Shown: one piece after another, positions 61,722 to 64,000 of the stretch
How positions within the stretch are numbered: the first letter of the stretch is position 1
Layout: every line of letters begins with the position of its first letter
Source: an uncultured bacterium
GTDB lineage: Bacteria > Desulfobacterota_D > UBA1144 > Nemesobacterales > UBA2774
Direction: 5' to 3'
Length of the DNA stretch: 64,000 nucleotides
Assembly: GCA_963825135.1 (NCBI GenBank)
Contig: CAWGRW010000009.1
Span: 736,001 to 800,000, forward strand
Program-made: the position numbers and the translations under genes
The notes under the pieces: model-generated
Told to the model about the DNA's origin: nothing
Seen by the model: the letters and a program-made list of their open reading frames with translations, nothing else
The model's database searches: none

Positions 61722-63089
61722 CTACTTCAAATTGCTTCCGTCGGCACAGAGCTGGGTGAGGATGCTGCAGGGTTTTTTGCTCCGGTTGCCGCACTCGTCC
61801 TTCGCCGCCTTTACAGCCTCGTCCATGTCGGCATAATAGCCCCATCCGAGAGCGCCGTCCTCACTCCTGGCTACGGCGCCGCAGTCTGTAAACGAAATCC
61901 TCATCTGACAGTTAGGCCCGTACTTCACGCACTCATCGACCGCCGCCTTTTCCGCCTGAACCCGCGTGGGATAGTTCCATGCCGTGCCGTATTGCCCGTT
62001 GTCGGCCGTGGCTATCGCCGCCCATACGTTCACCCGCTTTGTGCTTCCGTCCGAGCATAACTCTATGAACGAAGAGCATACGTCGTTGGTATACTTGTGA
62101 CATTCGCTGACCGCGTTGTTTCTCGCCAGATCGACGGTCGAGTTCGTCGCCCACCCGAAGGCCCCGTCCGGGGCCGTGGCATAAACAGCGCAGGTGTTAA
62201 ACGAGACTTTAATCTCACAGCCCGTATTGAACTGGCTGCACCTTTCGACGGCGTCTTTCTCGGCCGCCTGTTTCGAGGGCATGTTCGTCGAAAATCCATA
62301 TCCGCCGCTCGGCGAAACAGCTATAGATCCCCAGTTCCCTTCGTTGTCGTATGGACCGGGTGGGGACGGAGTATATACGGGGGGCCGGTAATCTTTGTCA
62401 TCGCCGATTATCTTATGGGGTTGATCGTTCTTCTCTCCGTCCTTACCCCCACCGCCGAAAATCAGATAACCGGCCAGTCCTAAAACCACTACTACAGCAA
62501 TTAAACCCCCGAGTTTCTTTTTATCGCCGAGGAAAGACCTTCCGCCGGAATAATCCTTCTTTTCGAGCGGCCTTATGGTTTCCATACGCTGATCCGGTCC
62601 CTGATCGGCTTTTGCCGAACCGGATTGGGACGCCCCGCTTATCCCGGCGGCATTATCATCGGCTTCGGACTCGACGCGCGCTCCCATTCTCGAAAGCAGG
62701 AGCTTGATAGTCGACAGCAGCTGTGCAAGGTGTTTTTCGAGCGGCGGGGTTAGAGCGTCGAGCCAATGCGGAGCGCTTATAAAGTATTCGAGGGATTTAT
62801 TGGGATCGACGTCCTCCACCCTGAACGGAATGACCGGTATGCCTTTGCTTACCGCACGCTCGACTTCCCTGATTATTTGCTGGGACTCATTGGCGTTGGA
62901 CGAGAACACGAGGACCATCACCCGGCTTGAGCTTATGGCGTCGATAATCGCCTCGCCCCACTGCGTGCCGGGCACTATGTCCCTGGGGGCAATCCAGCAT
63001 CTGACGCCGCCTTTTTCCAGAGTCGCGCATACTGCGTCCGCAACGGGTTTGTCTTTCGCCGAGTGACTGATAAAAACATCGTGAGCCAT
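61722..63089 (-). CDS. TIR domain - transmembrane helix - two DUF4189-like Cys-rich repeats
   Basis: TIR: DVFISHS, WIAPRDIVPG, REVERA (Glu75). TM aa ~193-211 preceded by KKK. Two six-Cys repeats. Confidence 0.88.
   Translation of the reverse strand: MAHDVFISHSAKDKPVADAVCATLEKGGVRCWIAPRDIVPGTQWGEAIIDAISSSRVMVLVFSSNANESQQIIREVERAVSKGIPVIPFRVEDVDPNKSLEYFISAPHWLDALTPPLEKHLAQLLSTIKLLLSRMGARVESEADDNAAGISGASQSGSAKADQGPDQRMETIRPLEKKDYSGGRSFLGDKKKLGGLIAVVVVLGLAGYLIFGGGGKDGEKNDQPHKIIGDDKDYRPPVYTPSPPGPYDNEGNWGSIAVSPSGGYGFSTNMPSKQAAEKDAVERCSQFNTGCEIKVSFNTCAVYATAPDGAFGWATNSTVDLARNNAVSECHKYTNDVCSSFIELCSDGSTKRVNVWAAIATADNGQYGTAWNYPTRVQAEKAAVDECVKYGPNCQMRISFTDCGAVARSEDGALGWGYYADMDEAVKAAKDECGNRSKKPCSILTQLCADGSNLK
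61737..62333 (-). repeat. Tandem ~103-aa protein repeat (aa 253-348 and 356-451)
   Basis: Cys at 284/291/300/330/338/345 and 387/394/403/433/441/448, each offset by exactly 103; shared W..IA, AEK.AV..C, DGA.GW and LC.DGS. Confidence 0.88.
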
Positions 63090-63143
63090 GTATTTTTCCC
63101 CTCTCCTCCAGACGAAATTCTTGAGGATTATAGCTGTGATTGA

Positions 63144-64000
63144 CTACCCAGGCAACACCAAACGCTTGGATTGAAAAACTATTCTCCAGTCCAGGTTTTC
63201 AGAGGTCATAATCTCCGCCGTATTTTCAGCGATGAAGCCGAGAAGCCGGTAGGAGGGAACGAAGTCCGCCTTATCGAGCTCGTTCCTCAGATTCTCCAGA
63301 TGTGCGCTCATGGCATCCGACCTCTTCGCTATGAGCTCGAATTCCCCCTGTGTCCTGATGCTATAGAATGCCGCTCCCAATGCGGGGAAAATAGCGGCGC
63401 AGATCGTGAGCCAGTCCTTGTGAAAATACAGATGGGAAAGGCATGCTATAACCGTGAGCACGAATAGCGCGGAGCCGATGATATGCAGTGTGTCATGGAT
63501 CCTGTGGAAACGGGGAGAGTTGCGCTTGTGATAATTAATCTGCCCGGTGATCTCCTGCTCCGACAAAAAGGCCCTGTATGATCCGAGGTATCCGGCGTCT
63601 ATCTTCGCTTCCACCAATCCGGCCTCCCGAACCACCGCCCTGAAGTGCCAGTTCACCCAGGAGTTCCTGGGGTCTCCGTACGTATCGTGGGCCGGCACCC
63701 TGAACGCCGGCGTCGTCAGACCGAGCGGTGCAAGAAATCTGAGCTGTCTCAGCTGTTCGGACAGGAGCCTGTAATCGATCCACCTCTCGTGCCATCGTTT
63801 TATATTCCCGATGACGGTGATCATTATTATCAGCAGGATCAGAGCGAGCTCGCATGATATCCACAGGTCCTCAAATCTCGTTACAGTCGGAAGCAGCGCG
63901 AAAAAGACCGCCAGCCCGGCCAGCAGGTAGTTAGCCAGAAAGGAGCTCCTGTAAATATTTGAATAGTAATTCGCGAGCTTGTCGGCCCAGGTATAATGCG
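63144..64000 (-). CDS. Membrane protein with two SLATT/DUF4231-like 2-TM modules (5' part outside the window)
   Basis: Frame is open from the window edge: HYTWADKLANYYSNIYRSS, TM, TM, RWHERWIDYRLLSEQLR ... QINYH, TM, TM, ENLDW. Confidence 0.72.
   Translation of the reverse strand, partial: HYTWADKLANYYSNIYRSSFLANYLLAGLAVFFALLPTVTRFEDLWISCELALILLIIMITVIGNIKRWHERWIDYRLLSEQLRQLRFLAPLGLTTPAFRVPAHDTYGDPRNSWVNWHFRAVVREAGLVEAKIDAGYLGSYRAFLSEQEITGQINYHKRNSPRFHRIHDTLHIIGSALFVLTVIACLSHLYFHKDWLTICAAIFPALGAAFYSIRTQGEFELIAKRSDAMSAHLENLRNELDKADFVPSYRLLGFIAENTAEIMTSENLDWRIVFQSKRLVLPG

Follow-up and report, generated by a model that had tools for sequence, protein, structure and literature searches.

The closest described relatives of the locus reported here are Thoeris systems. 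Type VII Thoeris consists of a TIR protein, ThsB, and a SLATT effector, ThsH, with canonical cyclic ADP-ribose (cADPR) as the signal, and in type I Thoeris, where ThsB is paired with ThsA (SIR2-SLOG), the SLOG domain binds TIR-made 3'cADPR (Yirmiya et al., bioRxiv 10.64898/2025.12.03.692087). The available part of that preprint presents the Thoeris TIR protein just as the component that senses phage and mentions no extracytoplasmic sensing domain; the words 'fused' and 'sensor' are absent from its main text. Neighbourhoods of TIR and SLATT genes are also known in phages, according to the accessible part of PMC9503650, and in GTPase-centred conflict systems (PMC7159879). Here we describe a three-gene chromosomal block that runs across the end of a 64,000-nucleotide stretch (the window) from an uncultured bacterium (contig CAWGRW010000009.1 of GenBank assembly GCA_963825135.1, positions 736,001 to 800,000). 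The genes, which we call geneA, geneB and geneC, lie in that order on the minus strand. geneC encodes a TIR domain joined by a transmembrane (TM) helix to two DUF4189 domains, geneB a SLATT protein with a predicted N-terminal SLOG domain, and geneA a distant paralogue of geneB. We propose, with moderate confidence and by analogy with the systems above, that they form a Thoeris-like circuit of TIR signal, SLOG sensor and SLATT pore in which sensing has shifted outside the cytoplasm.

Pfam TIR_2 matches amino acids (aa) 5-124 of geneC with 81.6 bits (cut-off 28), Pfam TIR matches with 36.3 bits (cut-off 21.3), and Pfam DUF4189 matches two stretches with 138.1 bits (cut-off 25). A reading of the window from its letters alone, hereafter the original prediction, had described this downstream gene as a TIR domain with a TM helix and Cys-rich repeats, and all three elements were recovered: the TIR_2 domain, a helix at aa 193-213, and 12 cysteines C-terminal to the helix in a 6+6 arrangement, those of the second repeat at positions 387, 394, 403, 433, 441 and 448. 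The TIR domain is likely cytoplasmic and the DUF4189 part likely periplasmic, to judge from the positive-inside rule, the Cys-rich C-terminal part and DUF4189 precedents; we orient the protein in this way because DUF4189 is described as a periplasmic three-disulfide fold. That description comes from the available part of bioRxiv 10.64898/2026.05.09.723464, in which the DUF4189 domain of XAC2611 binds VirB5, the tip protein of a type IV secretion system (T4SS), and Rv1813c shares the DUF4189 fold, with three disulfides per domain. Position 75 of the TIR domain is Glu in 50 of the 51 TIR domains that adjoin geneB relatives and in all 43 members of a TIR-subfamily alignment.

The upstream gene, geneB, had been taken for a SLATT protein with two 2-TM modules, and both parts of that reading are borne out. 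NCBIfam SLATT_1 matches the full-length protein in two stretches with 58.7 bits (cut-off 41), and Pfam DUF4231 scores 33.2 bits on the part inside the window and 29.8 bits on the full length (cut-off 24.7); for the second module, Pfam SLATT_1 gives 18.3-20.9 bits, under its cut-off of 26.3. The motifs listed for this gene are all present in the translation, as ADKLANYYSNIY (AD.LA..Y...Y), WIDYRLLSEQLR (W..YR...E.LR) and QINYH (Q..YH). SLATT domains are recognised as two-TM hairpins with flanking cytoplasmic helices, and hydropathy (Kyte-Doolittle for geneB) finds two hairpins each in geneB and geneA. The SLOG and SLATT definitions reportedly originate with Burroughs et al. 2015 in NAR. An AlphaFold2 (AF2) model of geneB aa 300-594 is all-helical, with a predicted local distance difference test (pLDDT) of 92. 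Searching the PDB with this region by Foldseek returned nothing at E<=0.001; the best match, at E 0.063, was among ABC-transporter helices and alpha-pore-forming toxins.

The original prediction had guessed at a SLOG domain lying beyond the window, and the complete gene supplies a good candidate for it. By predicted fold and motifs, the N-terminus of geneB is a cytoplasmic YpsA-like SLOG domain (aa 1-235). Its AF2 model has a pLDDT of 86.4, with a core above 90, and Foldseek ranks YpsA first (E 5.4e-7), followed by DprA, ShosA, TM1055, a molybdenum cofactor (Moco) carrier protein, LOG and the SLOG domain of ThsA. VIA-align, which re-examines the matches that Foldseek itself returned, gave 17.4 for YpsA (root-mean-square deviation 2.5 Å over 159 aa), 12.4-13.7 for DprA, 12.3 for ShosA, about 11 for the Moco carrier, about 10-11 for LOG, 9.0 for EcThsA, 7.9-8.3 for BcThsA and 7.9-8.9 for the TRPM2 N-terminal domain. 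YpsA, DprA, ShosA, the Moco carrier, LOG, ThsA and TRPM2 are all placed in the SLOG superfamily of the Aravind group in the available parts of PMC9503650 and PMC6459960. A tblastn search also aligned geneB aa 17-194 with a Streptomyces phage gene annotated 'DprA-like ssDNA binding protein' (PP537961.1 57100-57537; 28.7% identity, E 3e-6), the only sequence-level match to a gene annotated as DprA-like, that is, as belonging to the SLOG superfamily.

Conservation within the family is consistent with this assignment. In a 62-sequence geneB alignment the invariant residues are G20, G23, H24 and R25 of a GVTGHR motif, A78, G80 and D82 of an AEGAD motif, P101, Y107, E132 and D159, and G175 of a GGTG motif. 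A G-x-D element (G80-A81-D82; G80 and D82 invariant in 62/62) is located where strand 2 of the model ends. The available part of PMC6459960 gives GxD/E as the signature of the YpsA clade, with a predicted role in substrate binding; the geneB element fits that signature, and we infer the equivalence of its residues to G53/E55 of YpsA. A lack of SLATT or SLOG similarity in the upstream protein had been named as a result that would count against the original prediction, and on this point the outcome was in its favour.

TIR and SLATT genes also occur together elsewhere, the other point on which the original prediction had staked itself. The geneB family is conserved over its full length (842 matches at E<=1e-3 among 8000 scored candidates) and is hosted by Thermodesulfobacteriota and Dadabacteria-type metagenome-assembled genomes, Acidobacteriota, Planctomycetota, Dehalococcoidia, Aromatoleum, Phosphitispora and others. 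Our scan of a genome collection found at least 365 geneB relatives, and the locus counts given here refer to the best 80 loci. A hidden Markov model (HMM) built from seven TIR segments and their phmmer matches places a TIR open reading frame (ORF) within 7 kb of the geneB relative in 48 of the 80 (59 ORFs in total), and tblastn with the geneC TIR domain gives a match at E<1e-20 within the same distance in 21. The nearest TIR frame is at most 300 nt away in 27 of these 48 loci and co-oriented in 24. Grouped at >=60% identity, the geneB relatives form 39 clusters, 25 of which include a locus with a TIR gene, and the coupling extends across many phyla. In a RefSeq record, the Caballeronia plasmid pSBC2-4 carries a 'DUF4231 domain-containing protein' followed by a 'toll/interleukin-1 receptor domain-containing protein'.

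TIR genes are sparse by comparison in the genomes at large, with a background of about 0.3-1 per Mb. The source genome (3.13 Mb) has 2 TIR frames by the same HMM and 3 by Pfam TIR_2. In five other genomes, 22.2 Mb together, Pfam TIR_2 matches 14 times, and 8 of these matches are no more than 7 kb from the genome's only geneB copy; the five entered the sample through paired loci, which biases it towards pairing. A second TIR_2 gene of the source genome, on another contig (G000:C7; L088 2278-3012, plus strand), encodes 244 aa and scores 55.9 bits; it adjoins a gene for a 674-aa protein without a Pfam match and has no SLATT gene near it.

The TIR partners share a common plan. All 22 subfamily TIR proteins found beside geneB relatives have an N-terminal TIR domain, and in 20 of them hydrophobicity indicates a TM segment C-terminal to it; the exceptions are one TIR-ATPase-like protein and one protein cut by a contig end. 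By sequence reading, with Pfam on a subset, their C-terminal parts comprise two DUF4189 domains, TPR, FGE-sulfatase-like, beta-propeller-like repeats and PDZ-like domains. In at least 8 distinct lineages, the module and its relatives have a highly conserved TIR domain followed by a TM helix and an extracytoplasmic domain that varies. No part of the module is better conserved than the TIR domain: identity within the genus is 94-97% for the TIR domain, 72-87% for the DUF4189 part, 74-78% for geneB and 69-74% for geneA, and at Acidobacteriota and Planctomycetota loci it is 62-67% for the TIR domain and 38-40% for geneB. We take such conservation to be unusual when set against ThsB-type TIRs.

A second kind of neighbour is frequent. 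A TrkA_N (RCK) protein of 600-730 aa, in some cases with a RyR domain, adjoins the geneB family in 31/80 loci, and 63/80 loci have a TIR protein, a TrkA_N protein or both. Further neighbours are a SIR2-TIR protein with a STAND NTPase-TPR protein, a DUF4062-TIR-SPOR protein and a patatin. At two Terracidiphilus loci (L042 4190-5350 and L051 11047-12126, both minus strand) the multi-TM tail of a TIR protein resembles a geneB-adjacent TrkA_N/RCK protein (phmmer E 9e-31 and 2.5e-30), which suggests, from the sequences, domain exchange between the TIR and TrkA_N partner families. Downstream of the geneB/TrkA_N pair, 15 Acidobacteriaceae loci (L024-L061, at +2/+3; for example L028 10827-15251) encode proteins of 1000-1470 aa, and the one representative that we scanned had no Pfam match.

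Within its own phylum the block behaves as a single unit of presence and absence. Among 120 genomes of the phylum, 12 carry a geneB orthologue: the source genome, 8 of the other 9 genomes in its genus, and all 3 genomes of a second genus. In all 12 a geneC orthologue is directly downstream, one of these adjacencies spanning a contig break. In the source genome, genes for DUF3108 and DUF3568 proteins bracket the 5.6-kb block, and the DUF3108 gene is convergent with geneC, 31 nt beyond its end. The gap between these two genes measures 201-319 nt in seven block-free genomes of three related genera and 522 nt in the one genome of the same genus that lacks geneB (L083, G079:C37:9900-12000). About 195 nt of the longer spacer align with the 3' end of geneC (L002 2722-2917), from which we conclude that a deletion removed the block in this genome.

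Farther afield, in another family of the same order, one genome encodes a 650-aa TIR-TPR protein and, 109 nt downstream of that gene, a 596-aa SLATT_3/DUF4231 protein whose N-terminus matches the geneB SLOG region (G020:C17; L087 2688-6539). Respiratory and 2-oxoacid dehydrogenase genes surround this pair. Of 72,556 plasmid records just 2 carry a full-length geneB relative, and none of the phage records searched does. An origin of the block from a mobile element or a defence island was considered and is unsupported by the flanks, the two full-length plasmid matches and the absence of a full-length phage match.

The layout of the block is given below. The two genes first noticed in the window are indeed co-oriented minus-strand ORFs, and they are separated by the 54 nt of 63090-63143; geneA lies upstream of geneB in the same orientation, 6 nt away. 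geneA has 22% identity to geneB over 372 aa (E 1e-7), which makes the two distant paralogues, and has a similar layout of a SLOG-like region and two two-TM modules, with sub-threshold scores only for the SLATT models. In its orthologues the GHR and GGTG motifs are missing and G-x-D is variable, and geneA therefore looks like a ligand-blind, divergent paralogue of geneB. It was found only in Dadabacteria-type lineages (L003-L009, L012, L014). Pfam detects no SIR2 or Macro domain in geneA or geneB, and no known Thoeris effector is recognised in them.

Table 1. Genes and domains of the block. Positions are those of the window (G000:C9:736001-800000); an L002 coordinate equals the window coordinate minus 59000.
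Feature	Position	Strand	Description and basis
geneC	61722..63089	-	ORF call, 455 aa: TIR, one TM helix, two DUF4189
Cytoplasmic TIR domain (predicted location), aa 1-135	62685..63089	-	Pfam TIR_2; includes Glu75
Single TM helix, aa 193-213	62451..62513	-	Kyte-Doolittle 19-mer score 2.54; DKKK on the TIR side
DUF4189 repeat 1, aa 253-345	62055..62333	-	Best Pfam DUF4189 stretch; Cys 284, 291, 300, 330, 338, 345
DUF4189 repeat 2, about aa 356-452	61734..62024	-	Second Pfam stretch and tblastn internal repeat; borders approximate
geneB, part in window	63144..64000	-	C-terminal 284 aa of 594; called ORF 63144-63998 overruns the window end
geneB, complete in genome	window-equivalent 63144-64928 (L002 4144-5928)	-	594 aa
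SLATT module 1 (DUF4231), aa 314-397	63738..63989	-	Pfam DUF4231; first hairpin, TM 331-373
SLATT module 2, aa 460-581	63186..63551	-	Pfam SLATT_1 under its cut-off; NCBIfam SLATT_1 in two stretches; second hairpin, TM 480-524
geneA	window-equivalent 64935-66788 (L002 5935-7788)	-	617 aa

The domains, the predicted SLOG fold and the genetic coupling together support, as a candidate mechanism, the central idea of the original prediction that a TIR receptor signals to its SLATT partner. In such a circuit a periplasmic cue acting on the DUF4189 ectodomain would cluster the TIR domains of geneC. The clustered domains would then turn NAD+ into an ADP-ribose-derived signal, for example a cADPR isomer, as is expected from the TIR family. 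The SLOG domain of geneB would bind this signal, in the manner of type I Thoeris ThsA and TRPM2. Finally, the SLATT hairpins, possibly in a hetero-oligomer of geneA and geneB, would open in or breach the membrane in the manner of SLATT effectors, leading to ion leak and to growth arrest or death.

Several results weigh against this circuit. geneB aa 1-300 match no Pfam or NCBIfam family at E<=1, Pfam SLOG families included, and the geneB family profile finds nothing under E 0.28 among PDB sequences; because no Pfam SLOG family or PDB sequence matches, SLOG membership rests on fold and motifs. The profile search that the original prediction had proposed for this gene accordingly had a divided outcome, with DUF4231 and SLATT_1 found and no SLOG family matched at the N-terminus. 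For geneC, the PADLOC ThsB models give weak partial matches to the TIR domain (best E 5.7e-4), and scores from the Thoeris and retron TIR models of NCBIfam fall far under the cut-offs (17.4 bits against 220 for the type III Thoeris model ThcB4). Among PDB sequences the TIR domain has four weak matches at E of about 3e-4 (PdTIR 3h16, Hydra TRR-2, TIR-STING), in alignments that end short of Glu75 or involve non-enzymatic TIRs. The claim that this TIR keeps its catalytic Glu holds for the presence and conservation of Glu75; its correspondence to the catalytic Glu of AbTir, SARM1 and ThsB is our assumption from motif spacing.

At E<=1, PADLOC has no family for geneA or geneB, with models that date from 2023 and are older than Thoeris types V-XI. 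The flanks consist of conserved housekeeping genes with no defence island, and their 29 proteins yield just 2 PADLOC matches, both at the domain level (a sigma-factor-like protein and a partial mad2). Promoter-like and terminator-like sites in the module (5 and 11) are not above those in shuffled sequence (4.4 and 6.0) and are thus uninformative about an operon. The pairing also has its gaps: 32 of the 80 loci, at least 6 of them truncated, have no TIR within 7 kb, and in the five genomes above 3 of 9 close TIR copies lie away from geneB. The TIR subfamily far exceeds the geneB family, with 7706 matches at E<=1e-3 among 8000 scored candidates, so that many of its members probably function with no SLOG-SLATT partner.

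These points bear differently on the alternatives to the proposed circuit. The main rival, which we consider unlikely but take seriously, is that the module serves physiological envelope signalling and not immunity, with periplasmic cues setting an NAD-derived messenger that tunes membrane conductance. It would account for the housekeeping neighbours and missing defence-island signal, for the vertical inheritance of the block within two genera, for the presence of an ion-channel-like TrkA_N (RCK) protein, some with RyR, beside the family in 31/80 loci, for a TIR domain that is so much better conserved within the genus (94-97%) than geneB (74-78%), and for the rarity of full-length relatives on plasmid records (2/72,556) and their absence from phage records. 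It is harder to square with neighbours of the conflict-system type (SIR2-TIR with STAND NTPase-TPR; patatin) and with a patchy distribution, in which 2 of the family's 7 genera have the block and one member of the genus has lost it by deletion; moreover, the characterised TIR+SLATT and TIR+SLOG pairs in the available parts of the sources are all anti-phage. The coupling itself argues against dismissing the TIR-DUF4189 and SLATT genes as unrelated neighbours. Such an explanation could appeal to the 32/80 loci without a TIR in the flank and to TIR-subfamily members away from geneB, yet adjacency in 25/39 clusters across phyla and in 12/12 genomes of the phylum, on a background of about 0.3-1 TIR gene per Mb, together with gain and loss of the block as a unit, leaves it strongly disfavoured, and we reject it.

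Two further explanations accept the coupling and rearrange its logic. The roles could be reversed or parallel, with SLOG as an enzyme or the primary sensor and TIR as an NAD+-depleting effector, or with both as effectors. The invariant polar residues H24, R25, D82, Y107, E132 and D159 of the SLOG domain would suit LOG-like catalysis, and TIRs deplete NAD+ as effectors in CBASS, Pycsar and pAgo, as the available part of bioRxiv 10.64898/2025.12.03.692087 has it. We think this improbable, since the variable, sensor-like part is on the TIR protein and not on geneB, SLATT is an effector-type module, and the best fold match is to the YpsA clade, which includes cADPR sensors according to the accessible part of PMC9503650, and not to LOG. 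Alternatively, there may be no diffusible signal at all: the genes are adjacent and both proteins membrane-anchored, so TIR and SLOG could dock at the membrane and the ectodomain gate the pore by protein contact, a role in which the very high conservation of TIR would suit a protein interface. That arrangement we regard as highly unlikely, given that the geneB family also pairs with soluble SIR2-TIR and TIR-ATPase proteins, that some TIR genes lie 1-3 kb off on the opposite strand, and that the invariant Glu points to catalysis.

An immune role for the module is plausible, without contextual backing. One specific form of it, which we offer as a doubtful but concrete speculation, follows the logic of a Toll-like receptor: the periplasmic domain would detect an envelope-breaching machine before its DNA or effector reaches the cytoplasm and would cluster the TIR domain, whose product would open a SLOG-gated SLATT pore. 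The sensed machine could be a phage tail tip, the tip of a T4SS or type VI secretion system, or damaged wall material; the flanks examined contain no T4SS genes. The recognition domain would be DUF4189 here and TPR, FGE-sulfatase-like, PDZ, SPOR or beta-propeller domains in relatives, so that TIR proteins with variable ectodomains would amount to a receptor repertoire feeding one conserved effector. On this speculation the repertoire would be found widely among Acidobacteriota, Planctomycetota, Dadabacteria-type lineages and Proteobacteria. Should signal flow be as proposed, bacterial NAD-derived signalling could be driven from outside the cytoplasm, the TIR pathway would extend to envelope surveillance or environmental sensing, and the module would offer a tractable prokaryotic model for receptor-type TIR activation. 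The analysis also gives a predicted fold and a probable class of ligand for a large family of proteins of about 600 aa whose sole annotation is 'DUF4231'.

TIR+SLATT pairs and SLOG sensors are already known; what is distinct here is the combination of a receptor-like TIR protein (cytoplasmic TIR, TM helix, extracytoplasmic domain) with a SLOG/tandem-SLATT partner. Our literature search found neither a coupling of SLOG-SLATT to a membrane-anchored TIR that has a periplasmic domain nor a TIR-DUF4189 (TIR-TM-DUF4189) protein. The original prediction had called extracytoplasmic sensing a distinct arrangement, and this stands for the TIR architecture and for the SLOG/tandem-SLATT protein, which are set apart from known systems; the pairing of TIR with SLATT is not, being that of type VII Thoeris in the available part of its description. 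As in type VII Thoeris, a TIR gene lies beside a gene for a SLATT membrane protein, and a presumed TIR-made ADP-ribose derivative would activate the membrane effector. Unlike type VII Thoeris as described in that part, the 594-aa SLATT protein has an N-terminal YpsA-like SLOG domain and two hairpins, a degenerate paralogue (geneA) is present, the TIR is membrane-anchored with two predicted periplasmic DUF4189 domains, and the locus lies in no defence island.

Three comparisons beyond Thoeris apply to parts of the module. In TRPM2 channels and chanzymes, an N-terminal SLOG-like domain (MHR1/2) binds ADP-ribose and gates a cation channel. TRPM2 is a six-TM tetrameric channel, whereas the membrane part of geneB consists of two unrelated two-TM SLATT modules, and the likeness is one of design and not of whole-protein homology. 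geneC has the same Cys-rich DUF4189 domain, with 6 Cys per unit, as XAC2611 (Tpf) and Rv1813c, which the available part of bioRxiv 10.64898/2026.05.09.723464 describes as periplasmic or secreted protein-binding scaffolds. Unlike those free secreted proteins, the two copies in geneC are joined through a TM helix to a TIR domain that is likely cytoplasmic. Animal Toll-like receptors likewise combine a binding domain outside the cell with one TM helix and a TIR domain in the cytoplasm. The resemblance is an analogy only: geneC has the inverse order, its TIR domain being N-terminal, its ectodomains bear no relation to those of the receptors, and its TIR domain is presumed to act as an enzyme and not as a scaffold.

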